From sequence record OL739525.1: 64,000 nt of DNA; one strand, 5' to 3'. Numbering within the stretch: position 1 is the first letter of the stretch; each line of letters opens with the position of its first letter. The notes under the pieces are model-generated. The model was not told the DNA's origin, made no database searches, and saw nothing but the letters and a program-made list of their open reading frames with translations. Below are positions 8,727 through 60,019 of this stretch, piece by piece. Source of the stretch: Escherichia phage dw-ec. The position numbers were made by a program, and so were the translations under genes.

Positions 8727-8749
8727 GGAAGATCTTGCATCTTCCTTTT
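8727..8749 (+). promoter_or_regulatory. promoter-proximal hairpin plus U-run in 5' leader
   Basis: GGAAGAT-CTTGC-ATCTTCC followed by TTTT, just downstream of the predicted start site and upstream of the RBS at about 8765. Confidence 0.3.
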
Positions 8750-8775
8750 GGCATTATCATTACTACGAGGTTATC

Positions 8776-9477: not shown

Positions 9478-9479
9478 TA

Positions 9480-9893
9480 GTGACAACTTATTCTAAAACA
9501 ACAAGGTCTACAAGTAATACTGGCTACAGTGCAGTTTATCTGGAGGACCATTCTACTTATTTTGCATGGTATCTGAAAACTGAAGAGTACCCCGATCAAA
9601 CATATACAGTTACATTGGATGGAGTTGATTATGACATTCGTTTAAGGTGGAACACTAGGGACGAATCTTGGCAATGTCAAATGGGATTATCTGGAGATGA
9701 TCCGAGTATAAGTTTCAAAGTTACAAATGGTTTAGATCTTCTTAAACCTTATAAATATCTTGAAAGTGTACCAGATGGTCAATTGTATATAGTAGATACA
9801 GTTAAGATTAATGGTCGTCCTGGGTATACAACTACAGGTCGAGATAAACGTTTTGTATTGGTTTATATTGATAACAAACCTAATCAGGCGTAA
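9480..9893 (+). CDS. hypothetical baseplate protein
   Basis: 137 aa, GTG start after RBS GGAGG. Confidence 0.4.
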   Translation: MTTYSKTTRSTSNTGYSAVYLEDHSTYFAWYLKTEEYPDQTYTVTLDGVDYDIRLRWNTRDESWQCQMGLSGDDPSISFKVTNGLDLLKPYKYLESVPDGQLYIVDTVKINGRPGYTTTGRDKRFVLVYIDNKPNQA

Positions 9894-9902
9894 GGAGATA
9901 AT

Positions 9903-10913
9903 ATGGCAGAAAGAGAGTATACAAAAGCTCCTGCCCCTAATTTAAACAGGGCATACAAATTATTAATTGGTTCTGCCACAAACACAATACAGAAGAGAAC
10001 TAAGAACTCGGCATTTAAATCTACAGTAGATTTGGATACCAAGTTAGGGACAACAGAAAAATCCTCTTCTAATTTGTATTTGTTGCAAGACCATCAAATA
10101 ACCTTCAGTATTAAGAAAGATAATAACAAAGATCCTAACCAAGCAGAGATTGTAGTTTATAACCTTTCAGATGATACTGTTAACTATATAAACCGTGGTA
10201 TCCGAAATAACTTGGCTGTTGCTTTAGCGGTAGGATACGAAGGTGAAGAGTTGGTTATGATCTTCAAAGGAACTATCCAGTGGGTTAGTGATACTTTTGA
10301 CTCGGTAGACAGGAAAACCACTTTACACTGTTTGGATGGTGGTATTAACATTGCAGAAGCAAGAACAAGCCGCAGTTACCCAAAAGGAACTAAAATCAAA
10401 CGTGTTGTGACAGATTTGGTAAAGGATTTAGGGACTACAGAAGGTAATATACATGTAGACAATGACCAAACCCTATCTTCAGCAACAGCTATGTGTGGGA
10501 ACACTTCACATTACCTAGAACATATTTGTAAGAGTATTGATCACAATGTGTCAATACAAGACGGATCTGTTTATGTTACTCCACGTTCCCAAATGTCTAG
10601 TGCACGTAGCGCCTACATTAGTCCTGAAACTGGTTTAATAGGAAGCCCAGAACCATTCCACAACGATATTAAACCTACTAAAAAAGTTACCAAATCCTCT
10701 AAGAAGGCAAAGAAACCTACAGATGGTGTTAAATTTAAATGCCAAATGAATGGTGCAATCTTACCAGAAAAAACAATCTGGTTAAAAAGCCGAGATTATG
10801 ATGGTCCATTTAAAGTAGTCTCTGTTTCCCACAATGGGGATAAAGAAGGTAAAGAGTGGGTTACTGAAGTGGAATGTGTATCCGTGTCTGAAATAATGAC
10901 TAAGGAGAAATAA
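9903..10913 (+). CDS. baseplate hub protein (putative)
   Basis: 336 aa, RBS AAGGAGA, directly upstream of the spike gene. Assignment by position only. Confidence 0.4.
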   Translation: MAEREYTKAPAPNLNRAYKLLIGSATNTIQKRTKNSAFKSTVDLDTKLGTTEKSSSNLYLLQDHQITFSIKKDNNKDPNQAEIVVYNLSDDTVNYINRGIRNNLAVALAVGYEGEELVMIFKGTIQWVSDTFDSVDRKTTLHCLDGGINIAEARTSRSYPKGTKIKRVVTDLVKDLGTTEGNIHVDNDQTLSSATAMCGNTSHYLEHICKSIDHNVSIQDGSVYVTPRSQMSSARSAYISPETGLIGSPEPFHNDIKPTKKVTKSSKKAKKPTDGVKFKCQMNGAILPEKTIWLKSRDYDGPFKVVSVSHNGDKEGKEWVTEVECVSVSEIMTKEK

Positions 10914-11647
10914 TGGACGCATTAAATTTTGTCACAGCAATGCGTGGCTTAATGACAGAACAATTGGCAGAAGTCCATACAGCCCTGCCAGTCCGTGTGA
11001 CTGGCGTTAATTATGGTGCTAAGACTGTCACCTTAGAATCTATTGTTAAAAACACCCGATCTAGCGAAGATGAAATAGATTACCCTACTTTTGAAGATGT
11101 TCCTTTTATGGTTAATGGCGGTGGGACAGGAAGAATCTCATTCCCTATTAAAGCTGGCGATTTAGGAACTGTTATATTTTCTGAAAGAGATCCTTCTAAT
11201 GCACTGCAAACTAGTGGGGAAACCTCTTCATCATCCACTTTTATGCAGCCTTGTGGATTATACCCTATTTGTTTTATTCCTAAAATAGCTACAGGAACAG
11301 ATTCAACAGAAGCTGTAGATTCTGAAAAGGTAGTTATTTCTAATAACAAAAACACGTACGCTTCTTTCGACCCTACAGGTAATATTTCAATATGGAATAG
11401 TCAAGGGATGAAAATAGATATTACTACCTCCGGTATTACTATTACAGACGGCACAGGGACTTTGGATCTAAAAGGTGGTAATTTAACTTTCAAAGGCGGC
11501 GTAGCAGATATCAATGGTCTTAAAATAGATCAGAACGGTTTGATGACAGATGGTAATGGCATCGGATTCCATACTCACACGCACACGGTTCGTAATATTC
11601 AGAGCGGTAGCTCAAGTGCCGAGTCCTTAAAACCAACAGGAGCCTAA
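10913..11647 (+). CDS. baseplate central spike protein (gpV/gp5-like)
   Basis: 244 aa. C-terminal Gly/Thr-rich repeats (TSGITITDGTGTLDLKGGNLTFKGG) ending in HTHTHT, resembling His-x-His tip motifs of membrane-piercing spikes. Confidence 0.5.
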   Translation: MDALNFVTAMRGLMTEQLAEVHTALPVRVTGVNYGAKTVTLESIVKNTRSSEDEIDYPTFEDVPFMVNGGGTGRISFPIKAGDLGTVIFSERDPSNALQTSGETSSSSTFMQPCGLYPICFIPKIATGTDSTEAVDSEKVVISNNKNTYASFDPTGNISIWNSQGMKIDITTSGITITDGTGTLDLKGGNLTFKGGVADINGLKIDQNGLMTDGNGIGFHTHTHTVRNIQSGSSSAESLKPTGA

Positions 11648-32256: not shown

Positions 32257-32257
32257 G

Positions 32258-32287
32258 AAAAGGAGCCATTTGGCTCCTTTCTTTTAT
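32258..32287. terminator. bidirectional hairpin terminator at the convergence point
   Basis: AAAGGAGCC-ATTT-GGCTCCTTT with A-run upstream and T-run downstream, so it reads as hairpin plus U-tract on both strands. Confidence 0.6.
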
Positions 32288-32322
32288 AAAGTTAACTCTT
32301 CCCATGTTCTTGTGCCGCTTCT

Positions 32323-32345
32323 GGGGGGCCCCCCCCCCCCCCCCC
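32323..32345. repeat. homopolymer tract G6C17
   Basis: GGGGGGCCCCCCCCCCCCCCCCC read directly, in the 3' region of ssb between the convergent gene blocks. Confidence 0.9.
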
Positions 32346-32360
32346 TATAGATCAATAAGA

Positions 32361-33248
32361 TCAGAATGGAATATCATCATCGAAGTCCATTGGAGGTTCT
32401 TCTTGATTACTTGGAGTTGGTTCTGGTTGTGGTTCAGGTTTTTTAACTTCTTTCTTCTCTTCTTTCTTAGGTTGTTCTGCGGAACCACGAATGGCAGCAG
32501 CAACTTTATCAGACAAAGCTAGAACTTTACGAGCAGAGTCAATCAAATCTTCTACAGATACAGTCTTAATGGTATGGTCTTTACAAGCATTGAGGATAGC
32601 GTGACCAACAGATGCCCCAAGATCATAATCATTAATGTCAACGCCACGAGATTCAGCAATTTCCGATTTCAGCGTGACAGTTGCAGATTGAACAACCCCA
32701 GCGATATCGAAAGCATCACCTTTAACACCATTACGAATCAGTTCCAGTGCACCATTTACTGCGTGACCAGTTTCCAGACCTACAGTATCACGTTTTTTAT
32801 AGGACTGCTTAGGAGCAGCATCGTTGGAACCTTTATTGCCAGAAGATTTGTTAGACTTCTGAACACCATCGGTAGACAATACTGTAATACGAGATTTTTT
32901 AGTATTGTAGTAAGTTTTACCGCCTTTATTATCAACGCGATCAATATCAATACTTACTTCTACACCTTTTTCAATAGTGATCCAATTATCACCTTCTTTG
33001 ACTTGCAGGTTTTCATAACCTTCTTTCAGTTCAATGTCACCAAGAGAAATCCAAACACCTTTCTCATCTGGTTTAGCACCTTTCTCTTTCAGAACAAGAG
33101 AAGCTCGGTGAGTTGAAACAATCGTTTTTCCTTCCCAATGAAAAGTTTTAGGTTCAGCGAATTTATCCAGTTTAACGTAGTCTACGATACCAGTTGCATA
33201 AGTTACGGTTTTGCCTTTACGATCAGTTTCAGTATTAATTACGGACAT
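32361..33248 (-). CDS. ssb: single-stranded DNA-binding protein
   Basis: 295 aa ending in the SSB-type acidic tail ...PPMDFDDDIPF, preceded by a Pro/Glu/Lys-rich linker. Confidence 0.8.
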   Translation of the reverse strand: MSVINTETDRKGKTVTYATGIVDYVKLDKFAEPKTFHWEGKTIVSTHRASLVLKEKGAKPDEKGVWISLGDIELKEGYENLQVKEGDNWITIEKGVEVSIDIDRVDNKGGKTYYNTKKSRITVLSTDGVQKSNKSSGNKGSNDAAPKQSYKKRDTVGLETGHAVNGALELIRNGVKGDAFDIAGVVQSATVTLKSEIAESRGVDINDYDLGASVGHAILNACKDHTIKTVSVEDLIDSARKVLALSDKVAAAIRGSAEQPKKEEKKEVKKPEPQPEPTPSNQEEPPMDFDDDIPF

Positions 33249-45386: not shown

Positions 45387-45989
45387 TTATGGACATTCAT
45401 ACCATTCTTTTTTACCACCGAAGGCCATCACCACATCGCAAATATCCAGACCGGCTTTACCTACACCATATGCTTTCAGCTTCCATTCCCCATCTTCACG
45501 AACCAAGGAAGCCACGTGGCAGATTGTGTTACCAGCTACTTCAGGAGCCAGGAAGTCAAAATCCAGAATTTCCACATTACGTTCGGAGTCAAAGATTTTA
45601 AGCATACCTTCAGAAGCATGACCAAAACGTTTCAGACCTGTATCATCATCAATGGTCAGAACAAAGGCAATCTCTTGTGCATCAGGAGAGATTTTAGCCA
45701 GAGTAATATCAATCTGCTCCATGCTGCCAGTCCCATCACGAACATCGTCACCAGCGAAGGTAGAACGTTCAGGATCAAACTTGTTAGCGTAGCAAACCAG
45801 ATGACGTGCAGACAGCATTTCAGGATTGCCAGCGGCATTATGACGACAAACCAGTGCACTTACATCCAGATCCAGTTTAGAATCAGATTTCCAAGAGAAT
45901 TCCAGGCGCAGTTCTTTCAGAGCCGGAGCAACTTTCTTCAGGGAAATTTTTTCGCTAGAGCCTTTTTTCAGGGAAATTTTATCAGTCAT
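45387..45989 (-). CDS. TerD-family protein
   Basis: 200 aa. Aligns by eye along its length to E. coli TerD recalled from memory: N-terminal ISLKKG..ISLKK, DLDVSALV, GDDVRDGTG, FVLTIDD, GEWKLKAYGVG. Confidence 0.7.
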   Translation of the reverse strand: MTDKISLKKGSSEKISLKKVAPALKELRLEFSWKSDSKLDLDVSALVCRHNAAGNPEMLSARHLVCYANKFDPERSTFAGDDVRDGTGSMEQIDITLAKISPDAQEIAFVLTIDDDTGLKRFGHASEGMLKIFDSERNVEILDFDFLAPEVAGNTICHVASLVREDGEWKLKAYGVGKAGLDICDVVMAFGGKKEWYECP

Positions 45990-46274: not shown

Positions 46275-46503
46275 TTCTTCCTCCTAATGTTATCTCCGGT
46301 TTGTATATACGAAGAATTATAGCATTTTCATTTTCTTTGTCAACCCATTCTTCATAATCGGGCCATACATGAATCTCTACTCTACTTACAATATCTTCCA
46401 TTCGCACAGTCCCAATGAAATACTCTTTGAGACTGCGCATAATGAAAGCTTCTCTCTCGCGCCAATAATTTTCTACGACTTGAGAGGCAAGCTCGTCGAT
46501 CAT
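46255..46503 (-). CDS. hypothetical protein
   Basis: 82 aa ORF coupled to its neighbours. Confidence 0.4.
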   Translation of the reverse strand: MIDELASQVVENYWREREAFIMRSLKEYFIGTVRMEDIVSRVEIHVWPDYEEWVDKENENAIILRIYKPEITLGGRSVKLRN

Positions 46504-47294
46504 TTTTTAGCACCTACTTTAACAACCCACTCTCCGAACTCTTCAGATAAGAGTTTGTCATAAAGCTCTGAATCTGTCAAGTCTAAATCTTTAATGCCAA
46601 TAAAACCAACATTATCATAAGCATTTGCCAGTTCTTTCAGGAAGCCAAACTTCTCATTACCAACGCCAACCATGAACCAATAAATAGGTTTATTCTTATT
46701 CTCTTCAATAAGACGACGAACAGCACTAGGATCACCATTCTCACCATCCGTCTGGAAGAATACAACACCAGGGGTAACGTCAGCACCTGGTTCAGATACA
46801 GCTACAACTTTTTCACGCTCTACAGACACTGTTTCAGTTTTACCAAGCAGACGATTAAAGAAGCCTTTCTTTGGAGCCTCCTCTTGTACCACTTGTTTAG
46901 TGGTAATATATTTGGTAACAGTGCCAAAATACTCATCGTAGATATCTGCCATTACAGGGGCGTAATTTGTTCCACCTCCGATACGAACATTACGCATACA
47001 TTTACCAACATAGTCATCGTAAACGTCTGCTGTTGCTGGAGTAAGCTCTTGGGAACTCGTATTGAAGGCCCACATATCAATTTGTTGATTATCGTCGAAC
47101 AGCATACCAAAAGGAAGCAGTTTACCTACAAAATCACTCACTACCCCACTAGAATATAGACCATGCATACTACCAGAAATATCTAGAGCACATGCTACAC
47201 GAAGAACAATCTTACCTTCATTCAGGTTCTTATTCTTTTTCAGAGAGAAAGCAAGGTTTTCTTGACGTTTTTTCAGGCTGATTTTCTCGGACAT
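46500..47294 (-). CDS. von Willebrand factor A domain protein (TerY-like)
   Basis: 264 aa with MIDAS-type motif DISGSM. N-terminus MSEKISLKK resembles the TerD-like N-terminus. Confidence 0.55.
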   Translation of the reverse strand: MSEKISLKKRQENLAFSLKKNKNLNEGKIVLRVACALDISGSMHGLYSSGVVSDFVGKLLPFGMLFDDNQQIDMWAFNTSSQELTPATADVYDDYVGKCMRNVRIGGGTNYAPVMADIYDEYFGTVTKYITTKQVVQEEAPKKGFFNRLLGKTETVSVEREKVVAVSEPGADVTPGVVFFQTDGENGDPSAVRRLIEENKNKPIYWFMVGVGNEKFGFLKELANAYDNVGFIGIKDLDLTDSELYDKLLSEEFGEWVVKVGAKK

Positions 47295-48693: not shown

Positions 48694-48891
48694 TTACTCC
48701 TCCTCCTCATTGAAGTCAATATCTGCAAGGAGTTCGAATTTACGGAAGTTACGACAACCTTCATAAATATAACAATCACGACAAACTGCTAGAACACTTG
48801 GGGGATATATACCTCCCATCGGCGCGAATCGTTTTTCGTCATCATAACGGACACCAATGTCCTCATCAATTATATAGATACGGATTCTCAT
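48694..48891 (-). CDS. hypothetical small protein
   Basis: 65 aa ORF. Confidence 0.35.
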   Translation of the reverse strand: MRIRIYIIDEDIGVRYDDEKRFAPMGGIYPPSVLAVCRDCYIYEGCRNFRKFELLADIDFNEEEE

Positions 48892-50000
48892 TTACCAAGC
48901 CCTCGTTTCACAGCAGCTACCATCCCGTCTTCCAGAGATTGAACTTCATTAATATAATCAACACGAGCAGCACGGGCTTCCGTATTGATGCGGTTAGTTT
49001 CTTCCAACATCTTAACCAAGTTTTCCTGATCGTGACGCAGAGTTTCAATATCCAACACTTGACGGTTAGCCAGTGCTGCTGCTTCGATCTGATTCTGTGT
49101 GGCAAGATCGCTACCCAGTTTAATTGCCAGGTTAAATTCATCAAGAACGTTATTCTGCGTCTCTGCTGCTTTCATTTGACGTAAGCTCTCGATATACATT
49201 GAGAAGTTAGCAGAGTAAGCAGGAATAACATTATTTACTATGTTACGCGCAGATCGCATTAAGCTTGCAGAAACTTTTTGCATACCTTGTACACGCGGTC
49301 CCATTTGGACACACAGTAGGCGCAATGCTTTTAAATCTGCAATACGAATCTCCAGAAGATCCAAAGTATCTCGGATCACTTGTCGCTGTTCTACTGCATC
49401 TTCTGGAAGAGCAGCCAAAGCTTGTTCTTCTTTTTCATAGGTTGCTGTTAGAAGCTGCATATCTCGGTTCAAACTTGCAGCATATTGTCCAATAGCTTGA
49501 TGTAGCTTTTCAAGATATACCAAGGAATCTTCTTCTTTGCGAATATCCATTTGAAGGTTCTTTACCAACTCTTCAATACGGTTATTAACATTATCAAACT
49601 CCCCGAACAGGTCTTCTTTCATACCCATAACTTTTTTAATGAGTTTAGTAATACCCTTGCTTTGTTTAATAGAGTTTGGATCAAGTTGTTTTGCCTGTTT
49701 AATCAAAGCTGTAAGTCGTTCACTCATCTGATCGCCTTGATTACTACGTTGATGTTTTAACACCTCGGCATTCAAGGAACGCAAGGTTGTTCCTGCCTCT
49801 GCCCCAATCTCTTCAATCTCTTGTCGGGTCATAGAAGGCAAAACTGGAACTTCTTGCGGTGCCGCTGGTGCATAAACAGGACTGGCATCTAACACGCTTG
49901 GAGCGAATACAGATTTACTTGCATCTGTTGTTGCAGCGAATACACTCATTTCAGACTTCTTCTGACCACCAGTAGCTGCTTTTAAAAATGGACTTGTCAT
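48888..50000 (-). CDS. TelA-like (toxic anion resistance family) coiled-coil protein, tentative
   Basis: 370 aa, largely helical, of the size expected for TelA/KlaB-type proteins and flanked by TerD, vWA and TerC genes. No diagnostic motif verified. Confidence 0.4.
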   Translation of the reverse strand: MTSPFLKAATGGQKKSEMSVFAATTDASKSVFAPSVLDASPVYAPAAPQEVPVLPSMTRQEIEEIGAEAGTTLRSLNAEVLKHQRSNQGDQMSERLTALIKQAKQLDPNSIKQSKGITKLIKKVMGMKEDLFGEFDNVNNRIEELVKNLQMDIRKEEDSLVYLEKLHQAIGQYAASLNRDMQLLTATYEKEEQALAALPEDAVEQRQVIRDTLDLLEIRIADLKALRLLCVQMGPRVQGMQKVSASLMRSARNIVNNVIPAYSANFSMYIESLRQMKAAETQNNVLDEFNLAIKLGSDLATQNQIEAAALANRQVLDIETLRHDQENLVKMLEETNRINTEARAARVDYINEVQSLEDGMVAAVKRGLGK

Positions 50001-50587
50001 TCTTCATTCTCCTCTTCTGCATCTCTTATATATGGTGAAACACCGTACTCTTTAGCTACTTTAACCCAATCATCCCATTTATACAACCATAATTTTCCTT
50101 CAGTTCCTTCTTTATCTGATTTCAACCACATGTTAGGTTGCTTGCCTGGGTACATGCGATTAGGTTTACGATTATAACCTCTAACACATCTTGTCGCAAA
50201 CCTATCTACCAGAACAAGAACATATTTATACTCGTGGTTCAACGGCTCTTTGGAAGTGGCTTTAGGATTAGCCCCTAACTCTGCTGCCAGTTTTTGCCAA
50301 TGAGCACCGTGCCTACTAAACTTACCCATACAACCATCAATAGCGTGAGCAATTTCGTGCTTCATTGTATCCACGATCATATCTCTTGTAGAGTTCTTAT
50401 GCAAGTGCCAATTTACAACAACAATTTTATCTCGGTAGTTGCACCAACCGAAAGAGTTATTCACTTTGTTTCTAACACAAGCTTTATATCCTGCTTCACG
50501 TAACATGTTGTAGTAAACAGGAAAATCTTCTTTTATTTCCTGCATCACTTCCCACCACAAGAGTTGCAAGTCTCTCTCGGTATGCAT
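49997..50587 (-). CDS. SprT-like zinc metallopeptidase (putative)
   Basis: 196 aa with HExxH in TMKHEIAHAIDG...HGAHW, arranged as in SprT-family proteins. Confidence 0.5.
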   Translation of the reverse strand: MHTERDLQLLWWEVMQEIKEDFPVYYNMLREAGYKACVRNKVNNSFGWCNYRDKIVVVNWHLHKNSTRDMIVDTMKHEIAHAIDGCMGKFSRHGAHWQKLAAELGANPKATSKEPLNHEYKYVLVLVDRFATRCVRGYNRKPNRMYPGKQPNMWLKSDKEGTEGKLWLYKWDDWVKVAKEYGVSPYIRDAEEENEE

Positions 50588-52187: not shown

Positions 52188-52205
52188 AGCCTCCCGAAGG
52201 AGGCT
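52188..52205 (-). terminator. hairpin terminator after TerC gene
   Basis: AGCCTCC-TTCG-GGAGGCT on the minus strand, then AUUUUAU. Confidence 0.5.
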
Positions 52206-52211
52206 CATCTA

Positions 52212-53186
52212 TTAAATAGCAGCTTCTTCTTTTTCAGGGAAGATAAAGCTTGCAATAACACCAAGAGCTAATGTGCCTAGAACAATCATCAGACTTACGT
52301 TAGGGGAAATATCATGCGGGAGGAATGACCACTTGGCATGAAGTGTTTCACCGAACGGGTGGTACATAAGTTTAGCACCAACAAACACCAGAACCACAGC
52401 AACAGCTTTCTCTAAGTGAACCAGATATTTCACAGCTACACTCAACACAAAGAAAAGTGCACGTAAACCAAGAACAGCCATCAGCATTGCAGAATAAACT
52501 AGCAGAGGTTCTTGTGTCACACCGATCACAGCCGGAACTGAATCAAAAGAGAAGACAATATCTGTAAGCTCAATAACAAACACACAAAGAAGAGCAGGAG
52601 TTGCATATTTAATACCATTCTTAATGGTGATGAACTTTTCACCATCCAGTGCATTGTGCACAGGCAGAACTTTACCTACTAAACGAACAGCCCAATGCTT
52701 AGAGTAATCAATATCCTCTTCTTCGTCACCACCTTTGATGATAGCCACGGCAGACCAAGCTACAATCAAACCGAACAACACTTGGACCGACCAATGAAGG
52801 TTAAACAAAGCGGTCCCTGCTGCAACAAAAATACCTCGGAAGACAATGGCTCCTGCAATCCCCCAAAGTAGAATCTTATGTTGGAGATGTGTGCTCTTAA
52901 TTCCAAAGCTTGCAAAAATCGCCATGAACACCATCAGGTTATCTACAGAAAGACTCTTTTCCAACACATAGCCACTTAGGAAAAGCGCGGCAAACTCTTT
53001 ACCATGTTCTACCCAAATGAATGCGTAATATCCTAAAGCTAAAGCAATCCAAAAAACAGACCAAAGCAAAGCAGATTTAATTCCAATTTCTTTATTCTCT
53101 TTATGACCAAAGAAATCGATACCAATAGACAATGCCAAAATACCAACTAAAACAACTACATCAATAATTGGGAAACCGAGTTGCAT
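52212..53186 (-). CDS. TerC-family integral membrane protein
   Basis: 324 aa, multiple TM helices. Characteristic GYVLEKSLSVDN and ELTDIVFSFDSVPAV motifs. Confidence 0.7.
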   Translation of the reverse strand: MQLGFPIIDVVVLVGILALSIGIDFFGHKENKEIGIKSALLWSVFWIALALGYYAFIWVEHGKEFAALFLSGYVLEKSLSVDNLMVFMAIFASFGIKSTHLQHKILLWGIAGAIVFRGIFVAAGTALFNLHWSVQVLFGLIVAWSAVAIIKGGDEEEDIDYSKHWAVRLVGKVLPVHNALDGEKFITIKNGIKYATPALLCVFVIELTDIVFSFDSVPAVIGVTQEPLLVYSAMLMAVLGLRALFFVLSVAVKYLVHLEKAVAVVLVFVGAKLMYHPFGETLHAKWSFLPHDISPNVSLMIVLGTLALGVIASFIFPEKEEAAI

Positions 53187-53265: not shown

Positions 53266-53487
53266 TTATTTTGTTGAATGAGAGGAAAAGATTCCTCGTA
53301 ATACCGCCAGAATAAACGAAACACAAACCACGGTCCAGAAGGTTACTGGGACAGTGATATCTGCATGACCCATAACTTCAGCAACATAGTTGTAAGCCAG
53401 CAACAGTAACCAAGCTGGAATCAAACTAAGCATAAAAGCAATAACAAAAAAGCTTACCACTGCAACAATACCTGCAAAAACACCCAT
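53266..53487 (-). CDS. small membrane protein (two TM helices)
   Basis: 73 aa, two hydrophobic segments. Confidence 0.4.
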   Translation of the reverse strand: MGVFAGIVAVVSFFVIAFMLSLIPAWLLLLAYNYVAEVMGHADITVPVTFWTVVCVSFILAVLRGIFSSHSTK

Positions 53488-53499: not shown

Positions 53500-53973
53500 T
53501 TAAAGTTTATAAATAGTCACATCGTGACCTGTTTTTACTAAAGTTTCTTCAATCATCACTTGGATGATAGCCCAATTACCTCCAGCATATCCAGCGCCAA
53601 TCATAGGTAAGCCGATCTTACATTTTTGGTCACGGAGAAGCAAATCATTAGCCATAGCTATTAGTGCATCGTAAAGTGCATCATAGTCCAACTGACGACC
53701 TTTAGCATTGTATCCATAACGGTATTGCCCGTATAGATTATATACCAAAGGGTCTGATTGTTCGTCTGGCACCCCTAAACTAAAACAACCTAGTTTACTT
53801 TGATCACCAGCCATTGTGTCTAAGTCTGCTGCATATGCGTAAGGAAATGCTTGTTTGATTTGTGGGGCAATACCTGCCCCCATATTACACATACAGTTGC
53901 AACAATGAGCAATAACAGTTACTTCACCTGCTTTAGCGGCATCAATAAGATTACCTCTTTTCATTTTAAGCAT
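53500..53973 (-). CDS. macro-domain-like protein (tentative)
   Basis: Track ORF 53500-54078. The ATG at 53973 follows RBS AAGGAG. Segments VIAHCCNCMCNMGAGIA and KIGLPMIGAGYAGGNW resemble macro-domain motifs; a LOG-like fold is an alternative. Confidence 0.35.
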   Translation of the reverse strand: MLKMKRGNLIDAAKAGEVTVIAHCCNCMCNMGAGIAPQIKQAFPYAYAADLDTMAGDQSKLGCFSLGVPDEQSDPLVYNLYGQYRYGYNAKGRQLDYDALYDALIAMANDLLLRDQKCKIGLPMIGAGYAGGNWAIIQVMIEETLVKTGHDVTIYKL

Positions 53974-53986
53974 TTTTAGCTCCTTA

Positions 53987-54814
53987 TTACAGAATGTGTT
54001 GTTTTGTGTAACGATCCAAGAATTCAAAGTTTTCAGCATACTTTGAAATTCGGTTGTAACCTTCTCCCAAACATCCAAAGAAAAGTTGCTCTACATAGTA
54101 ATGTGGCAATTGGCTAAGAATGATTTTGAAGTCTTCATGATTTTGGCCCATAAGATACTTAATAGGACGAACAAGACACTGTGCATCACGTTCTTCATTA
54201 ATCATTTTAACAAACGCTTCTGGTGTATTAATGTAGTTAAAATTCAGTTTAGCTTCGGTATCTGCTTGATTACCTTCGTATTTTGCAAAATACAAGAAGT
54301 AAACATCATTTTTAACTTGATTTTCATCAAGGATCTCAATCAGTTTGTCTTCATGCGTTCCAGTGATATTTACATCATCAATGAATACAAGCTTCTTATC
54401 ACCCCAGAATTCTTTGTTGCAGTAGAATGTATCCCCATCAATAAGTTTCTTACGACTAGCTTTATCCAAGAAACCATAATCGTTGATATAGCTAACTTTA
54501 CGATGAATAATGTCCAGTTCTGCTGAACGACCTTGATCATATTGTGATTGCAACATATTAAAATAATTAATAAAATGATCTGTCATCATTGTTGCAGCAT
54601 TATGCACATGGTTATAAGGAGAAGGAATGATAACAAATTGTTCCCCAATATGTTTCATTGCCACTTGAGCAAAAAACTGAAGTGCCAATTCTTTACCCAT
54701 ACGACGCGCAGCTTGGTTACTACCAAATTTCAATTTTGAATAATCTTGGATATCAAAAGTAGCAGTTTCCAGGTCATCAAATTTATTTGCAAAAATTTGA
54801 GTTTGATTACGCAT
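53987..54814 (-). CDS. phosphoribosyltransferase-fold protein (PRTase or PRPP-synthetase-like)
   Basis: 275 aa. PRPP-binding-type motif KKLVFIDDVNITGTHEDK. Confidence 0.55.
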   Translation of the reverse strand: MRNQTQIFANKFDDLETATFDIQDYSKLKFGSNQAARRMGKELALQFFAQVAMKHIGEQFVIIPSPYNHVHNAATMMTDHFINYFNMLQSQYDQGRSAELDIIHRKVSYINDYGFLDKASRKKLIDGDTFYCNKEFWGDKKLVFIDDVNITGTHEDKLIEILDENQVKNDVYFLYFAKYEGNQADTEAKLNFNYINTPEAFVKMINEERDAQCLVRPIKYLMGQNHEDFKIILSQLPHYYVEQLFFGCLGEGYNRISKYAENFEFLDRYTKQHIL

Positions 54815-55463
54815 TTACAATTTCTCCTCTTTTAAGTTTCTCTAGTAAGTCGTTAGGGTTCTTAATATGACAGAAGTTAAATCCTAAGTCAACACATTTT
54901 CCATCATATTCTTCACTATCACCTACATGCAACACTTCGTGCCCTAACAGAGGGATCGGAGAATACGTGAGCGTGCGAGCAAAGAATCGCGGATCTGGTT
55001 TACAAAGTAAAGCTTCATCCGAGAAATGGGTGAACTCAAAACAATTCCAACTATCAAACTTACAAGCACGACGCAGGATATCCCCTGATATGAAGTTGGT
55101 ATTGCTCTTAATACTCAAATCATAACGCCCCGAAAGATACAGCAAGTACATCGGCAGATCCACGGCTACGTGTGGTGGAAACTTAAGGAACCACTGTTCA
55201 CACTCGAAACGAAGCTTTGCAGACTTCCAAGGCGTTATCCCAAGTTCAGAACCAAGTCTTTCCCAGGCGTATGCTGCACACTCGGCTTTGCCTTGAAGTG
55301 CTGCATTATCCAGTTCCTTTTTGATCTTTTTATAAGCTGCTCTTGCTTCCACTTCCGTAATATCTCCATATTTTGCGATAGTCCAGGCTCGCATGTCTGC
55401 GTAATTGGAGTTTGCTGTGATCAGTGTGTTCCATACATCAAAAGAGATATGTTTAATAGTCAT
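54807..55463 (-). CDS. HAD-superfamily hydrolase (putative)
   Basis: 218 aa. Motif I-like SFDVWNTLI, LCKPDPRFF and HVGDSEEYDG. Confidence 0.55.
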   Translation of the reverse strand: MTIKHISFDVWNTLITANSNYADMRAWTIAKYGDITEVEARAAYKKIKKELDNAALQGKAECAAYAWERLGSELGITPWKSAKLRFECEQWFLKFPPHVAVDLPMYLLYLSGRYDLSIKSNTNFISGDILRRACKFDSWNCFEFTHFSDEALLCKPDPRFFARTLTYSPIPLLGHEVLHVGDSEEYDGKCVDLGFNFCHIKNPNDLLEKLKRGEIVNA

Positions 55464-55464
55464 A

Positions 55465-56070
55465 TTAAGCCCACCATGCGTCTAAGTTAAGATTACTGTC
55501 CACTACCACTTGTTCTATGTGGTAGCCTTTTATCTGTATCCCACTATTCAAGAGCATATCATACGCTTCATTGAAACGCAACTTATCTTCTGCGGAATAT
55601 AAGCGAGCATTATAAAATCGGTAATCAACTTCTTCAGCATTAGAAGAAATACGGAAGAAGTTTGTTTCTACTTCGGGATCACTTGCTGAAGTCTTAATGT
55701 GAACTTCTCCGTAATTTTCTTTACTTAGATCCATGAAAAGAACACAGGCAACATGTTTAAACATTCGTTCCAGCTTGTAACGAACAACATTGAAACCTGC
55801 ATTCTCAAGTTTTTCTACACACTGCAACATTAAAGTAGTGTCGAGATCGCTTTGATACTTTGTTAACATACGATCACGTTGAGACTTTGTATCCCGATGT
55901 AAATCAATTGTTGTGCATTTGGCACCAATAATCTTAGCTGCTTTCATCAACTCTTCAGAACTAACGTTAGATAAAGTAAGATGAAAATGGGCTTTCCACA
56001 CTTTTTTAGCAGGGACACCAAAAGATTTATCCCCACTATTCGGCATGTTGACTACTACACTATGTTGCAT
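55465..56070 (-). CDS. hypothetical protein (possible divergent 2H phosphoesterase)
   Basis: 201 aa. One clear H-x-T-x motif (AHFHLTLSN); the second (VHIKTS) is poor. Confidence 0.4.
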   Translation of the reverse strand: MQHSVVVNMPNSGDKSFGVPAKKVWKAHFHLTLSNVSSEELMKAAKIIGAKCTTIDLHRDTKSQRDRMLTKYQSDLDTTLMLQCVEKLENAGFNVVRYKLERMFKHVACVLFMDLSKENYGEVHIKTSASDPEVETNFFRISSNAEEVDYRFYNARLYSAEDKLRFNEAYDMLLNSGIQIKGYHIEQVVVDSNLNLDAWWA

Positions 56071-56085: not shown

Positions 56086-56310
56086 TTAAAATGGAAGTCT
56101 TTGAAGTTCATCTCCTCCGATATCAAGTAATTTAGCAACATCTCGATCAGAAAGCAACTCTTTTCTTTGTAAAATATCCACAAGGGTTGCAAGAATATCC
56201 TTAACGTCCCGATCACTGTTCTTCAAAAGTTCTCCTGCCGTCCCTACTCTATCTCCTACAGCAAAATATGTAACCATAAAACCTCCTAAGTTAATCTGAT
56301 TGCCAACCAC
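56086..56310 (-). CDS. hypothetical small protein
   Basis: 74 aa ORF overlapping the nrdG start region. Confidence 0.35.
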   Translation of the reverse strand: MVGNQINLGGFMVTYFAVGDRVGTAGELLKNSDRDVKDILATLVDILQRKELLSDRDVAKLLDIGGDELQRLPF

Positions 56311-56761
56311 TTGCCGTTTTGGTCCATAATCTTTGATTATCTGACCCTCTGAAAGGTTTTGTAGTTGGATTGTTTATTTCATACTTTCCGTCTACAATAA
56401 TGTCAACAAGATTTTTAATATACAAAGGCACTTCCTCAAAAGTATATCCTGTATACACCATTATATCTTTGCTTGACCCATAAACGTCTCTAACCTTTTC
56501 TATAAGGTTTTTAACATTGTAAATATTCTGCGGATCTAATGGCTCTCCTCCTAAAATTGTTAAACCTTTTACAAACGGTCTTGACAAATCTTTTAAAACT
56601 TGCTCTACATTTTCGTGAGTGAACGGTTTCCCATAAGAATAAGACCAGGCTTTTTGGTTAAAACAGCCACGACAACCGTGGCTACAACCACTAACCCAGA
56701 GGGAGCACCTAACTCCCTCACCATTAATAAGATCTACAGGTTCATATCCTGCAAAATTCAA
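56291..56761 (-). CDS. nrdG: anaerobic ribonucleotide reductase activating protein (radical SAM)
   Basis: 156 aa with CSHGCRGC radical-SAM cluster motif; coupled to nrdD by an ATGA overlap. Confidence 0.8.
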   Translation of the reverse strand: MNFAGYEPVDLINGEGVRCSLWVSGCSHGCRGCFNQKAWSYSYGKPFTHENVEQVLKDLSRPFVKGLTILGGEPLDPQNIYNVKNLIEKVRDVYGSSKDIMVYTGYTFEEVPLYIKNLVDIIVDGKYEINNPTTKPFRGSDNQRLWTKTASGWQSD

Positions 56762-58572
56762 AGATGTTTCTCCCTTTGCAAAACTTCCTGCATTTTACCT
56801 TTGTTGTAAGGCCGTGAATTAGGGGCAGAAAGATACCCTGATACACGTCTAACTACAGAAATAGTTTCTTCTTCATGGTTGCCACAATCAGGACACTCAA
56901 ACCCTTTAGCCGTTGCCTTAAATTCTCCATGAAAACCACACTTAAAGCATTGATCCACGGGCTGATTAATACCAAAATAGTGAATATGTTCATAAGCGTA
57001 GTCTACTAAAGTCTCCAAAGCTTCTAAGTTATTCTTTAAGTTTGGTGTTTCGACATAACTTATGTTACCACCATTGCTAATCTGTGCAAAACCTGCTTCA
57101 TAATCCCATTTTTCAAAAGGATTTGTTACCAACCATACAGGTTGGTGAAAAGAGTTGGTAAGATAGTCTCTTTCTACCAAACCTGGGTATTTTTCATTTA
57201 AAGCTGTTGCAAACTTATAACACAAGGATTCTGCTGGAGTTCCATAGAGACTAAACGCCAACTTAGATCGTTCTTTAAACACAGCACACACATCTTTCAT
57301 ATGTTGCAGAATGCTTTTACCAAGTTCCTTTTTATCTTTTTCTTCTGGATAAAGGATTTCCAAAGCTTCGGCAAGACCTACATAACCAATACTAATAGAA
57401 GCATAACCACCTTCAAACAAAACACCAATTTCATCATTGGCATTTAAACGCGCTAAAGCCCCTTCCATGAAAAGAATAGGGTTTTCAGATGCTTTGGTAT
57501 GTCTGATACGGTTTACACGTAACATGTGAGCATCGTAGGCTATCTCCATATGTTTATTAAGAAGATCGGTGAAAGATTCTCCTTTACTTCTCGCTTCCGC
57601 AGCGATCAGAGGTAAGTTGATAGAAACTACTCCAAGGTTGAATCGTCCATCGTATTTTTCTCCTTGTTCGGTGGCATAGTACGACAAAAAGGAACGACAA
57701 CCCATACTCGTAACAGTGCCATCTGCTGATCCCGTAACTTCTTTGTTCAAAGGAACAGAAATAAAATCTGGATAAATACGATCAGCACAACATGCCAAAG
57801 CTTGTTGCTTAAGGTCATAGTTAGGATCACTAGGTTTCATGTTAACACCTTCTTGTAAAAAGAAAATAACTTTAGGGAATACAGGTGTTACATGATCTTT
57901 GCCTAGACCGTTACTATGAACTTTAAGATAGTTAGCTGTGATCATTCTGCCAAAAACAGAGGTATCCAGACCCATACTGATTGTAATAAAAGGAGATTGT
58001 CCATTAACACTCATTAAAGTATTAACCTGATACAAGAGAGTTTGCATAGCATCATATACATCTTGTTCGGTCATTTCTAGTGCTTCTTTCCTTGCATAAC
58101 AACCGTAGCGACGTTTGGTTATCTCCATGTTTTTAAGGAAACTAGCTTCAACATAAGGACTAAGACCTTTATCAATGTGCGCACACGTCTGACCTCCATA
58201 CTGACTGGAGGCAACAGCTTGGATGATTTGAGTTAGCACTGTGGTAGCTACCCCAATAGATTTTGGTTTTTCTATCTGTGCGGCTCCGATCTTAAAGCCA
58301 TTCTCTAACATATCTTGATAATTAACAAGACAACAGTTTGTAAGAGGAGAGAGTAGATAATCTAAGTCGTGAATATGTCCAAAACCTTCTGTATGCCATT
58401 CTGACAAGTTTTTTGGCAGTATCTGTGTCATTGCCATATGTTTGCTTAAAATCCCCGCCAAGAGATCCCTATGCGTGTTAACGAGGTGGGAAGGTTTGTT
58501 TGCATTCTCTCTAGTGTATGTTTCTGAAGTGCGATCTAAAAAAGAAAAAACATCTTGGTACAAATCTTTCAT
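56758..58572 (-). CDS. nrdD: anaerobic ribonucleoside-triphosphate reductase (class III)
   Basis: 604 aa. C-terminal Cys4 zinc site (CFKCG...CPDCG) followed by the glycyl-radical motif RRVSGYL. Confidence 0.85.
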   Translation of the reverse strand: MKDLYQDVFSFLDRTSETYTRENANKPSHLVNTHRDLLAGILSKHMAMTQILPKNLSEWHTEGFGHIHDLDYLLSPLTNCCLVNYQDMLENGFKIGAAQIEKPKSIGVATTVLTQIIQAVASSQYGGQTCAHIDKGLSPYVEASFLKNMEITKRRYGCYARKEALEMTEQDVYDAMQTLLYQVNTLMSVNGQSPFITISMGLDTSVFGRMITANYLKVHSNGLGKDHVTPVFPKVIFFLQEGVNMKPSDPNYDLKQQALACCADRIYPDFISVPLNKEVTGSADGTVTSMGCRSFLSYYATEQGEKYDGRFNLGVVSINLPLIAAEARSKGESFTDLLNKHMEIAYDAHMLRVNRIRHTKASENPILFMEGALARLNANDEIGVLFEGGYASISIGYVGLAEALEILYPEEKDKKELGKSILQHMKDVCAVFKERSKLAFSLYGTPAESLCYKFATALNEKYPGLVERDYLTNSFHQPVWLVTNPFEKWDYEAGFAQISNGGNISYVETPNLKNNLEALETLVDYAYEHIHYFGINQPVDQCFKCGFHGEFKATAKGFECPDCGNHEEETISVVRRVSGYLSAPNSRPYNKGKMQEVLQREKHL

Positions 58573-58636: not shown

Positions 58637-58667
58637 GAAAATCAAAAAAGGCGCAAAGTGCGCCTTT
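58637..58667 (-). terminator. rho-independent terminator
   Basis: AAAGGCGC-ACTTT-GCGCCTTT on the minus strand, then UUUUGAUUUU. Confidence 0.6.
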
Positions 58668-58672: not shown

Positions 58673-60019
58673 TTATCGTTTGGAGAGGAATTGTCTTCCC
58701 ATGATCTTACCGTTCTTTACAGCGGTCCCATCGTGTCCATTATAATCCCAAGTTCCATCAATGTTACGCAAGAAGCTATCACGAACAGTGTAGGCTTTAC
58801 CGTTCTCTACTTTACTTTCTTCCACAATGATTGCCATAACAAGCTTATTTTCAATTTCGGTAGTAACCGATTCTTTAATACCCTCTGTAACTTCACGATC
58901 ATATTGGATATAAACTCGCTCCTCGGTCACTTGCACGTCTACCACATTTTTAAATGTGTATGTCTGCTGTGTAGTGTAAAGGACACGAACGACACTCTTC
59001 TTACCTACTGGCGGCTTCTGACGACGCTTGCGGTAACGTGGAGACGGGTTAAGTTGAATATAACCTACAATATCTGACCCATCTCCAGAGTGGCTCCAAT
59101 AAAACGTCTCTGCCAAACCTTTTCCTTTGTCCCCATTTCGAAAAAGGATATTAACAGGACCATCACAAGGGCGTCTACCTCCGATGTGGGCTTGGTATTT
59201 TGCTGTTCTTGGGAGAACAAAATATTCTTCAATCTGCCATTCACTGTCGTATTTCTCCCATTCGAAGTGGTTGGCTTTGCATACTTCTAAAACACCATTT
59301 TTGTAACGGACTTGAACAAAGTCCTCACAAGGTTGAATACCTGTATTAGGAATATAGGTAGGCTCTGTGTCTTCTGGTTCAAAAGTCTCTTTTTGTTGTT
59401 CTACATCTTCCACTTTTCTTACATGCTTAGTATAAAACATATCTTTAAACTCCTGTGCTTCAACCTCAACTGCAAATTCATGTTCTCTAACAGCCGGAGG
59501 CACAAGGCTTCCACACTCAAGATGTAGAGCATCCAGACCTGCCATTTTATCGTAAAAGATAACTTTTCGATACTTCTTACCGTCTTCTGGAATAGCAGGG
59601 TCTACTCGTTTAAGACGGGAAGCATCGTTTTTAGTCCAAAAACTCTTCCCTGTTGTATTATTGAAAGTAGTAATCATTTCTCCAATTTCTTCTTCAGAAA
59701 GGTTACTAGTGTCTGTGTAAACATCTTCAATTTTTAGCATTTTAGTTTTCTTAAAAATTAAATCTAGCATTGCATCTCCTGTAAAACGTAGTTCATTATC
59801 TCCTACTGTCGGCTCTCCAGAAAATTCATCAGTCCCGACTGTGTGACAGATGTATGGAAAATTTGTGCAACCGTGTAAAAGAGCATATTGTCCTGTAAGT
59901 TTAGGATCTGTCTCTTTAGTCCAACCATATGCAATCTCAATAGCTTTGCAAAGCCTATCGAACAAGCCCCGATTGTTTGCCGCTGTTACCAAATCTTGCT
60001 TATGTGCATATACATTCAT
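58673..60019 (-). CDS. hypothetical protein
   Basis: 448 aa ORF; no family recognised by eye. Confidence 0.5.
   Translation of the reverse strand: MNVYAHKQDLVTAANNRGLFDRLCKAIEIAYGWTKETDPKLTGQYALLHGCTNFPYICHTVGTDEFSGEPTVGDNELRFTGDAMLDLIFKKTKMLKIEDVYTDTSNLSEEEIGEMITTFNNTTGKSFWTKNDASRLKRVDPAIPEDGKKYRKVIFYDKMAGLDALHLECGSLVPPAVREHEFAVEVEAQEFKDMFYTKHVRKVEDVEQQKETFEPEDTEPTYIPNTGIQPCEDFVQVRYKNGVLEVCKANHFEWEKYDSEWQIEEYFVLPRTAKYQAHIGGRRPCDGPVNILFRNGDKGKGLAETFYWSHSGDGSDIVGYIQLNPSPRYRKRRQKPPVGKKSVVRVLYTTQQTYTFKNVVDVQVTEERVYIQYDREVTEGIKESVTTEIENKLVMAIIVEESKVENGKAYTVRDSFLRNIDGTWDYNGHDGTAVKNGKIMGRQFLSKR

Follow-up and report, generated by a model that had tools for sequence, protein, structure and literature searches.

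A HAD-phosphoribosyltransferase gene pair flanked by a macro-domain gene and a homologue of AbiEi-slot proteins in an Escherichia phage

The question raised by this locus is whether four contiguous phage genes serve a single pathway or only share a gene string. The window, i.e., the whole 64-kb stretch of DNA that was analysed, comes from an E. coli myophage that resembles Phapecoctavirus; the region matches Escherichia phage Mt1B1_P17 with 99.6% identity. Four ORFs are located on the minus strand at 53500-53973, 53987-54814, 54807-55463 and 55465-56070. As proposed in a preliminary description, the outer two indeed bracket the genes of a phosphoribosyltransferase (PRTase; PRTase_3, E 2e-41) and a HAD hydrolase. 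In the same description the outer genes were regarded as a macro-like protein and a possible 2H phosphoesterase, and all four genes as one module regenerating NAD-related metabolites or destroying ADP-ribose-based immune signals. Genome records label these genes in nearly all cases as "hypothetical", "phosphatase" or "orotate PRTase". The reading favoured here, with a probability of roughly 55%, is that of three evolutionarily separate units in one gene string: a HAD-PRTase nucleoside-metabolite cassette and, one on either side of it, two orphan counter-defence genes resembling antitoxins, of which one would encode an SCO6735-type macro hydrolase and the other a 201-aa protein that is not of the 2H type and belongs to a family occupying the AbiEi slot. 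What the sequence comparisons show are the family assignments, conserved residues and gene neighbourhoods of the four genes; all of their substrates and biological roles are inferred.

The gene string runs from right to left in the order nrdD-nrdG-p74-p201-HAD-PRTase-macro-p73-terC and has an operon-like layout, with short intergenic gaps or overlaps, ribosome-binding sites and terminator-like hairpins at both ends. Each of the four ORFs starts either behind a GGAG-type ribosome-binding site (TAAGGAG ahead of the macro ATG) or by translational coupling to the preceding gene. Upstream in the same string are nrdG and nrdD, the genes of the anaerobic ribonucleotide reductase (56291..58572, minus strand; overlapping ORFs, assigned from the annotation of near-identical phages). 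A small conserved ORF of 63-74 aa (56086..56310, minus strand; phrog_17780, 1e-39; 48% identity in Justusliebigvirus) is encoded after nrdG and before the 201-aa gene. The macro gene and terC are separated by the gene of a 73-aa hydrophobic, predicted membrane protein (53266..53487, minus strand; phrog_16065, 6e-43), which is syntenic in Justusliebigvirus with 60% identity. Possible boundaries of the transcription unit are a hairpin upstream of nrdD (58647..58667, minus strand; 9-bp stem with five GC pairs, then a T-run) and another one right after the terC stop codon (52188..52205, minus strand; 7-bp stem with five GC pairs). The contiguity of the four genes, which are probably co-transcribed, speaks for one pathway in which macro protein, PRTase, HAD hydrolase and a 2H enzyme recycle ADP-ribose or NAD-derived metabolites or degrade ADP-ribose-based immune signals, and so does the HAD-PRTase-macro order, which is syntenic across two genera of Stephanstirmvirinae. 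However, the otherwise syntenic locus of the sister genus Justusliebigvirus lacks the 201-aa gene, which elsewhere has other neighbours, and a module of all four genes is not supported.

The last gene of the four (53500..53973, minus strand) encodes a protein of 157 aa, counted from the ATG. Its assignment as macro-like, previously considered weak, turned out to be much stronger. The Pfam model Macro (PF01661) scores 22.3 bits (cut-off 22), and phmmer comparison with solved macro domains yielded SCO6735 as best match (5E3B, 2.5e-12), along with BT1257 (2FG1, 1e-8), DarG (5M31, 1.7e-6) and TARG1 (4J5Q, 2.8e-6). DarG models from PADLOC (5.6e-10) and NCBIfam (1e-8) also match, with the NCBIfam score of 34.9 bits lying far under the equivalog cut-off of 250. 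Invariant in 33 homologues are H23, N26 and Q83, which correspond to H24, N27 and Q85 of SCO6735 in a HMMER alignment, as well as the loop residues G126, G128 and G132. Judged by its sequence, the protein has a true macro domain, belonging to the SCO6735/ALC1-like class, and is most likely an ADP-ribosyl hydrolase. Common to it and SCO6735 are the His-x-x-Asn motif, the Gly-Gln motif, in which Gln replaces the Lys of TARG1 and DarG, and the GxGxxGG diphosphate loop. However, Val25 of SCO6735 is a Cys in the phage protein, and Lys34 and Lys89, which aid DNA binding of SCO6735, are both missing. Moreover, SCO6735 is a protein of Streptomyces coelicolor, whereas the phage protein comes from a virulent phage, with an activity that is predicted. 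SCO6735 removes both the thymidine-linked ADP-ribose that is attached to DNA by DarT and Glu-linked ADP-ribose on proteins, and its activity is abolished by the exchange Q85A and nearly abolished by N27S (PMC9411070).

Orphan anti-DarT enzymes, among them the macrodomain AdfM, are established in phages (PMC13309987, PMC11825919, PMC11481870). AdfM of chimalliviruses, the NADAR-type AdfN and AdfB of ICP1 resemble the macro protein, as it is predicted here, in being orphan antitoxin-like ADP-ribosyl hydrolases of lytic phages. AdfM and DarG2, however, have a catalytic Lys (K78/K80; PMC13309987), and the catalytic Lys known from DarG (K80) and TARG1 (K84) is missing in the phage protein, with Gln83 at the aligned position. 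This missing residue counts against a DarG-like reading. Unlike DarG, the phage protein also has no DarT-binding C-terminal domain. In the favoured reading it would remove ADP-ribose that is attached either to proteins or to DNA, in the latter case as DarT-type thymidine adducts, and would protect the phage in the manner of an orphan DarG-like antitoxin. Its closest phage relative outside the subfamily (47% identity, in another phage) is located amid genes for NAMPT, NADAR, SIR2, HAD and PRPP synthetase (Prs). This neighbourhood favours the one-pathway reading, and because of it the protein may have a role in small-molecule ADP-ribose metabolism. A function directed against host defence based on NAD or ADP-ribose is plausible. 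Of the ADP-ribose chemistry proposed earlier, the part concerning the macro domain is supported, as such domains act on ADP-ribose adducts, but the single four-gene pathway is not.

At the other end of the four genes, the 201-aa protein (55465..56070, minus strand) had been considered a possible 2H phosphoesterase on account of one clear H-x-T-x motif. The motif is present once (H30-L-T32-L). By our estimate, ~0.2-0.3 four-residue motifs of this kind are expected by chance per 200-aa protein; it is nevertheless meaningful because neither H30 nor T32 varies among 71 homologues of ~25-55% identity. The family assignment, in contrast, had to be abandoned. A second 2H motif is absent, with residues 124-127 reading H-I-K-T and homologues showing H-x-[K/R/H]-x at this site. 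None of the 71 family members matches any Pfam or NCBIfam model, and a PDB profile search with the family returned no 2H protein at E<=10. The hhalign probabilities were 3.5% versus E. coli ThpR and 0.3% versus phage Acb1, and fold comparison of an AF2 model yielded no match to the bilobed LigT-like/2H fold. By sequence, profile and predicted fold the 2H assignment is rejected, and this failed assignment also weakens the one-pathway reading.

Nevertheless, the protein resembles 2H phosphoesterases (ThpR/LigT, Acb1, CPDase) in size (~180 aa), in one invariant H-x-T on a beta-strand, in the local string FHxHITL, which is similar to the second motif of ThpR (FHPHITL), and in its genomic company with RNA-repair and anti-CBASS genes, whereas the second H-x-T/S motif, the profile similarity and the LigT-like fold are all missing. 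In other phages the neighbours of its homologues include genes for Acb1 (overlapping), NADAR, RNA ligase, RlaP and a Rv2179c-like exonuclease; no Acb1 or RNA-ligase homologue was detected in the 64-kb window. Some family members are fused to NUDIX, RelA/SpoT-type HD (HD_4) or HTH domains. A metal-independent phosphodiesterase of a 2H-like kind, either very divergent or convergent, which would open 2',3'-cyclic phosphates or cleave cyclic or 2'-5' oligonucleotides in order to repair RNA or destroy immune signals, would agree with the resemblance to ThpR, with the RNA-repair and Acb1 genes among the neighbours, with the fusions to NUDIX and HD_4 nucleotide hydrolases and with two motifs invariant in the family, H-x-T in the first strand and E-x-H-x-[K/R] in one that comes later. 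Such an enzyme appears unlikely.

A different context is provided by toxin-antitoxin systems. The protein belongs to a mostly viral, unannotated family (phrog_22504 being its only phrog match) and is a homologue of a non-canonical partner of AbiEii toxins in the AbiEi slot. The PADLOC AbiEi models PDLC02277 and PDLC02279 match it with 3.6e-13 and 3.1e-12, the alignment spanning residues 29-200 of the protein and 4-192 of 195 model positions. Within the family, all 71 members match PDLC02277 and 70 of the 71 match PDLC02279 (best E 5e-26). The AbiEi families of Pfam matched none of the 71 members, a PDB profile search returned no AbiEi chain, and canonical AbiEi (winged-helix plus C-terminal domain, COG5340) is unrelated to this protein. 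In bacteria, the family sits in the antitoxin position beside AbiEii/MenT-like nucleotidyltransferase toxins. An AbiEii gene follows directly downstream of four bacterial homologues, found in an alphaproteobacterial MAG and in Deinococcus, Kitasatospora and Streptomyces rimosus plasmids, with a gene overlap of 4 nt in both annotated bacterial records; in two of the six bacterial contexts examined no AbiEii neighbour was found. The Deinococcus protein matches the 201-aa family with an hhalign probability of 97.6% and keeps the invariant residues. A plasmid search with the phage sequence itself gave no match.

The bacterial homologues resemble AbiE/MenAT systems in their position just upstream of AbiEii genes, as is typical for antitoxins, and in their PADLOC class "AbiEi". 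The phage copy differs in that its toxin partner is missing from the window (no AbiEii homologue by tblastn in 64 kb), which makes it an orphan, and in that the family appears to be enzymatic. To our knowledge, no AbiEii homologue is relevant in hosts of this phage. In the favoured reading, the phage copy would be an orphan and probably enzymatic neutraliser of AbiEii/MenT-like toxins or of their RNA-end products. Stoichiometric inhibitors and sponges are frequent among phage counter-defence proteins. Together with the antitoxin slot occupied in bacteria, this would suit a non-enzymatic binder, which either sequesters AbiEii-type toxins as a mimic of classical type II/IV antitoxins or serves as a nucleotide sponge. 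However, about 15 polar residues (His, Thr, Arg, Lys, Glu, Asp, Asn, Ser) are invariant in 71 sequences with a mean column identity of 23%, which is, like the fusion to catalytic NUDIX/HD domains, more typical of an enzyme. Such a binder is therefore quite unlikely.

A single AF2 model of the 201-aa protein (21 input sequences, pLDDT 82.7) predicts that the family is built of ferredoxin-like beta-alpha-beta units; comparison of the N-terminal with the C-terminal half by hhalign gave no signal of an internal duplication. As a tentative suggestion, which in its full form is rather unlikely, the protein could represent a new enzyme family that has a tandem ferredoxin-like fold of its own and H-x-H-x-T / E-x-H-x-K as its active site, undoing the AbiEii/MenT-type nucleotidylation of RNA 3' ends (probably of tRNA) and serving as an enzymatic antitoxin in bacteria and as orphan counter-defence copies in phages and apparently in giant eukaryotic viruses. 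By analogy, this would be the RNA-repair counterpart of the DarT/DarG relationship, encoded in this phage at a distance of two genes from a DarG-like macro hydrolase. Phapecoctaviruses are frequently considered for use in phage therapy. If both flanking genes encode orphan antitoxin-like enzymes, these would take part in shaping host range in the face of DarTG- and AbiE-type defences, and the 201-aa family would provide a first handle on reversing or blocking nucleotidylation of the AbiEii/MenT type other than by canonical AbiEi.

The two inner genes form a unit of their own. The PRTase (53987..54814, minus strand; 275 aa) matches a single profile, PRTase_3 (PF15610, E 2.2e-41; 142.5 bits, cut-off 28.7; model positions 9-264 of 264), and is a ComF-like type I enzyme and not a NAMPT/NAPRTase. 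Its PRPP loop IDDVxITGTHE is intact and invariant in four phage orthologues, with D146, D147, T151, G152, H154 and E155 as invariant residues; the PDB holds no solved relative at E<1. The HAD-IA hydrolase gene (54807..55463, minus strand; 218 aa; NCBIfam DREG-2 2.4e-8, YjjG 3.8e-5) overlaps the PRTase gene by 8 nt. Pfam Hydrolase scores 21.2 bits, under its cut-off of 26.4, and a profile search of the PDB yielded 2OM6 (1.8e-10), with which the protein has the FDVWNTL motif in common. Motifs I-IV are present, with the nucleophile D9 in motif I, S120/T122 in motif II, K155 in motif III and the acidic D182/D187 in motif IV, all of them invariant, as are W11 and T13. Motif I, however, reads D-V-W-N-T and lacks the Asp at position D+2 which is the general acid/base of phosphomonoesterases, and the Trp found instead is retained without exception in three phage orthologues and is also present in 2OM6. 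A simple 5'-nucleotidase activity is uncertain because of this Trp.

The overlap of a HAD gene followed by a PRTase gene is kept in Xanthomonas, Rhizobium and Brevundimonas phages and in rhizobial plasmids, where the pair stands alone, with neither a macro nor a 201-aa gene beside it. From these comparisons the pair appears as a self-contained, portable two-gene cassette, and its occurrence without the macro gene in such distant phages and plasmids argues against the one-pathway reading. A NUDIX gene after the pair in a Rhizobium phage points in the opposite direction. Known phage pathways of NAD+ reconstitution use NAMPT plus NMNAT/Nudix or the ADPR-PP route (PMC7824862, PMC9503650). They resemble the present locus in encoding a PRTase and ADP-ribose-related enzymes near each other, but the PRTase found here is ComF-like, and genes for an adenylyltransferase, Nudix and Prs are not present in the window. 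Likewise, tblastn revealed no homologue of NAMPT, NADAR, SIR2, Prs or NUDIX in the window, which covers 64 kb of a ~150-kb genome. The earlier proposal of NAD regeneration thus found no direct support, and recycling or degradation of ADP-ribose-type metabolites by all four genes as one pathway is very unlikely.

The surroundings of the cassette point to another link. The same gene string includes genes for a TerC-family integral membrane protein (52212..53186; PF03741, 3e-40), a TelA-like protein (48888..50000; PF05816, 3.2e-33), a vWA-TerF-like protein (46500..47294; PF10138, 1.6e-37) and a TerD-domain protein (45387..45989; PF02342, 3.2e-28), all on the minus strand and in an arrangement that is kept in Justusliebigvirus. 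This Ter cluster had been overlooked in the preliminary description. A Ter-associated PRTase/HAD module for a "nucleoside-like metabolite" is said to go back to Anantharaman, Iyer and Aravind in 2012. In the favoured reading, the PRTase would couple a base to PRPP, yielding a ribonucleotide, and the HAD hydrolase would then process the phosphate of this nucleotide, yielding a nucleoside-like metabolite, in a setting where such a metabolite was proposed as a signal. Iyer et al. (2021, PMC7824862) gave examples of phage Ter systems in which "signal biosynthesis" genes for a PRTase and a HAD enzyme occur. The present locus agrees with the Ter-associated module in having a PRTase_3 member and a HAD hydrolase amid TerC, TelA, TerD and vWA-TerF genes, but the ATP-grasp and TIM-barrel lyase partners are missing, the HAD hydrolase has a Trp at D+2, and the closest HAD-PRTase pairs elsewhere have no Ter neighbours. 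No Ter genes occur within 7 kb of the pair in the Xanthomonas, Rhizobium and Brevundimonas phages, and none are annotated beside it in two rhizobial plasmids, the gene tables of which are incomplete. As the nearest relatives of the pair are not located beside Ter genes, its linkage to Ter may be only local.

The macro, HAD-PRTase, p73, TerC, TelA, vWA and TerD genes are common to Phapecoctavirus and Justusliebigvirus, and a role of the Ter system in phage competition has been proposed (PMC7824862). Both facts would fit the idea that the gene string in its entirety, with macro gene and cassette, serves the Ter system of the phage in superinfection exclusion or stress tolerance, with the macro protein processing an ADP-ribose-containing Ter metabolite instead of countering DarT. 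However, macro homologues are widespread without Ter genes, the HAD-PRTase pair is likewise found without them, and a Ter-linked macro protein was not found described in the literature, where only generic annotation was found for Ter or macro genes of Phapecoctavirus. This idea is highly improbable. As a compact and portable unit, the HAD-PRTase cassette could allow the identification of the long-predicted "nucleoside-like" product of Ter-associated PRTases. Within the Ter cluster, a SprT-like metallopeptidase gene (49997..50587, minus strand; PF10263, 4.2e-9), which is absent from Justusliebigvirus, overlaps telA by 4 nt.

The four genes which the preliminary description had singled out, a macro and a possible 2H phosphoesterase ORF flanking a PRTase/HAD pair, are real, and their order could be confirmed. 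All of them lie on the minus strand, which carries every gene from approximately 32 kb up to the right-hand end of the window. They belong to a string that begins, in transcription order, with nrdD (56758-58572), nrdG (56291-56761) and the small ORF p74 (56086-56310), continues with the 201-aa ORF (55465-56070) and the genes for the HAD (54807-55463), the PRTase (53987-54814) and the macro protein (53500-53973), and ends with a 73-aa membrane ORF (53266-53487) and terC (52212-53186). Downstream of terC, a SprT-like gene, telA, a vWA-TerF-like gene and terD were found. Within the string, genes overlap or are separated by 1-15 nt, the sole exception being a gap of 79 nt ahead of terC that contains a promoter-like site. 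As a GGAG-type ribosome-binding site precedes most of these genes and terminator-like hairpins on the minus strand flank the string (58667-58647, just upstream of nrdD, and 52205-52188, just past terC), it appears likely that nrdD to terC are co-transcribed. Over the 3.2 kb around the four genes, identity reaches 99.6% with Escherichia phage Mt1B1_P17 and 98-99% with dozens of Phapecoctavirus genomes, each ~150 kb in size. Upstream of nrdD lies a 448-aa ORF (58673-60019), labeled by GenBank as 'class III ribonucleotide reductase' in the record of phage SKA64 and as 'hypothetical' elsewhere. The GC skew changes its sign at ~31000-33000, with the maximum of the cumulative skew near 31-32 kb, coinciding with the switch to minus-strand genes.

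The four genes had been proposed to act as a single ADP-ribose or NAD-metabolite module. Neither the conservation of gene neighborhoods nor the type of the PRTase supports such a unit, and a tblastn search of the 64-kb window yielded no homologues of NAMPT, Prs, NADAR, SIR2, NUDIX, Acb1, RNA ligase or AbiEii. Judged from sequence comparisons, the locus is best described as a portable HAD-PRTase cassette in a phage Ter cluster; the genes on either side of the cassette have their nearest bacterial relatives among the antitoxin-side enzymes of abortive-infection systems. For the macro protein these relatives are DarG/SCO6735-like, and for the 201-aa protein they are 'AbiEi-slot' proteins, encoded upstream of the AbiEii nucleotidyltransferase toxin gene, where the antitoxin AbiEi normally sits.

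The HAD gene also precedes the PRTase gene, its stop codon overlapping the PRTase start codon, in Justusliebigvirus (65% identity between the PRTases), a Xanthomonas jumbo phage (51%), Rhizobium phages (46%), Brevundimonas jumbo phages (36%) and rhizobial plasmids (about 38-40%). As no macro, 201-aa or Ter genes were found near the pair at these loci outside Stephanstirmvirinae, it can be regarded as an autonomous, portable cassette. In dw-ec it lies within a Ter cluster conserved in two genera, Phapecoctavirus and Justusliebigvirus. The match of the PRTase to Pfam PRTase_3 (ComF-like; E 2e-41) spans the entire protein, and the PRPP loop IDDVxITGTHE is retained; a search against the PDB found no solved relative. 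The HAD belongs to subfamily IA, with the nucleophile Asp9, Lys155 and Asp182/Asp187 being present. Phosphomonoesterases of the HAD type carry a general acid/base Asp at D+2, the position at which motif I of this protein (residues 9-13, D-V-W-N-T) exhibits an invariant Trp. Its FDVWNTL motif recurs in the archaeal structure 2OM6, labeled 'probable phosphoserine phosphatase'. The PRTase would form a ribonucleotide from a base and PRPP, and the phosphate of this ribonucleotide would be removed or transferred in a HAD-dependent step, which is uncertain because of the Trp at D+2. Anantharaman et al. reportedly defined the PRTase family in Ter operons in 2012 and predicted that PRTases and HAD enzymes make a nucleoside-like metabolite. 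Iyer et al. (2021; PMC7824862) repeat this prediction and point out that 'signal biosynthesis' genes for PRTase and HAD enzymes occur in Ter systems of phages.

Several smaller observations concern the cassette and its surroundings. In Rhizobium phage RHph_TM21B (4073-4790 of the comparison locus) the HAD gene preceding the PRTase gene is seemingly split over two reading frames, with tblastn matches at 4082-4246 and 4365-4748 and an annotated CDS covering only 4308-4790; a frameshift or a sequencing error may be responsible. In Xanthomonas phage XaC1, a DUF2828/DUF7788 protein of 528 aa (7941-9527 of its locus) is encoded directly downstream of the pair. TerC (52212-53186) shares 73% identity with its counterpart in phage SKA64 (8016-8987 of that locus), with all neighboring proteins being 97-100% identical, which suggests that terC is a site of allelic replacement or mosaicism. 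Overlapping telA by 4 nt, the gene of the SprT-like metallopeptidase (49997-50587) occurs in Phapecoctavirus, whereas the syntenic Ter cluster of Justusliebigvirus lacks it.

The assignment of the macro protein, previously termed weak, proved right and better founded than had been stated. The Pfam Macro model scores only narrowly above its cut-off (22.3 vs. 22 bits), but phmmer searches against solved structures retrieved SCO6735 (5E3B; 2.5e-12), Bacteroides BT1257 (1e-8), the Thermus DarG macrodomain (5M31; 1.7e-6), human TARG1 (2.8e-6) and yeast Poa1p (1e-3). The DarG models of PADLOC (5.6e-10) and NCBIfam (1e-8) also match, far under the equivalog cut-off. An alignment of 33 sequences of the phage family revealed H23, N26, Q83 and a glycine-rich loop (G126, G128, G132) as invariant. 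Gln83 aligns with the lysine that is catalytic in TARG1 (K84) and DarG (K80), and the position of TARG1 D125 is occupied by Ala, exactly the pattern (Gln, Ala) of SCO6735. That enzyme strips DarT thymidine-linked ADP-ribose off ssDNA and Glu-linked ADP-ribose off proteins; its activity is abolished in the Q85A and nearly abolished in the N27S mutant (PMC9411070). Orphan antitoxin-like anti-DarTG enzymes are carried by lytic phages, e.g., the chimallivirus macrodomain AdfM (PMC13309987; PMC11825919; PMC11481870). However, AdfM is a Lys-type, DarG2-like enzyme (PMC13309987), unlike the phage protein with its Gln83. The most economical reading is that the latter would be a SCO6735-type ADP-ribosyl hydrolase serving counter-defense. 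As a homologue with 47% identity in another phage is surrounded by NAMPT, NADAR, SIR2, a HAD and PRPP synthetase, the protein may also act on soluble ADP-ribose derivatives. In Justusliebigvirus Bas62 the macro protein (9833-10567 of the comparison locus) is annotated with 244 aa vs. 157 aa in dw-ec. As similarity begins only at approximately nucleotide 10118, it has either an N-terminal extension overlapping the PRTase gene or a mis-called start codon.

Macro gene and Ter context alike add further cases to kinds already known; the part worth pursuing is the 201-aa family. Its supposed identity as a 2H phosphoesterase failed every membership test applied. The protein contains a single H-x-T motif, the second candidate reading H-x-[K/R/H]. 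Comparison of the family by hhalign gave a probability of 3.5% for E. coli ThpR, resting on a local FHPHITL match only, and of 0.3% for a phage Acb1, an anti-CBASS 2H phosphodiesterase. A profile search with the family against all PDB sequences, its threshold relaxed to E<=10, still retrieved no 2H protein. The AlphaFold2 model (pLDDT 82.7, core >90) predicts the order beta-alpha-beta-beta-alpha-beta, followed by a second unit beta-beta-alpha-beta, and Foldseek found no match to it in the PDB <1e-3. Motif count, profile comparisons and Foldseek all speak against the 2H identity; as far as sequence and model indicate, the protein is not a 2H enzyme. Neither the protein nor any of 70 homologues matches a Pfam or NCBIfam family, and an exhaustive profile search yielded 257 cluster representatives. 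As 15 positions (H28, H30, T32, T70, R97, K99, E101, E122, H124, S142, N144, F152, E186, D191, D197) are invariant in 71 sequences despite a mean column identity of 23%, they look like an active site. Among predicted viral structures (BFVD), Foldseek retrieved eight uncharacterized proteins with TM-scores up to 0.71/0.82, encoded by phages, Acinetobacter phage ME3 among them, and by giant viruses, for example Klosneuvirus, Fadolivirus and Bodo saltans virus (E 1e-7 to 1e-6). The giant eukaryotic virus matches suggest that the fold extends beyond phages.

Two PADLOC 'AbiEi' models match the 201-aa protein over nearly its full length (3.6e-13 and 3.1e-12), one of them matching 71/71 and the other 70/71 of diverse family members. 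Canonical winged-helix AbiEi is unrelated to this family. The label is explained by bacterial homologues encoded directly upstream of AbiEii genes. Searches of plasmids and genomes revealed four such loci, on a Deinococcus sp. QL22 plasmid (NZ_CP097157.1; 2909-5181 of the comparison locus; 4-nt overlap), a Kitasatospora plasmid, a Streptomyces rimosus plasmid (4-nt overlap) and in an alphaproteobacterial MAG; in two further bacterial contexts of the family the AbiEii neighbor is absent. The Deinococcus homologue aligns with the family at an hhalign probability of 97.6% and keeps the invariant residues. As AbiEii/MenT toxins are reported to nucleotidylate tRNA 3' ends (PMC13064643; PMC10435456), the family might enzymatically neutralize these toxins or their products, with the phage copy possibly being an orphan antitoxin-like counter-defense gene. 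No other part of our interpretation is as speculative. The gene was never found linked to HAD-PRTase outside Phapecoctavirus-like phages and is missing from the otherwise syntenic Justusliebigvirus locus. Some family members carry an N-terminal NUDIX, a RelA/SpoT-type HD or an HTH domain as a fusion, and phage neighbors of the family comprise Acb1 (overlapping), NADAR, a Rv2179c-like exonuclease, RNA ligase, RlaP and thymidylate kinase. In a 110 kb phage (JGI 3300035492 contig), a 36%-identical homologue overlaps the start of the Acb1 gene by 8 nt (10001-11021 of that locus), and a NADAR gene follows 3.5 kb downstream, an arrangement that looks like an anti-defense island. On the Deinococcus plasmid, a divergent RNA ligase family gene adjoins the homologue/AbiEii pair, which suggests that the three genes could form a unit for RNA-end modification and repair.
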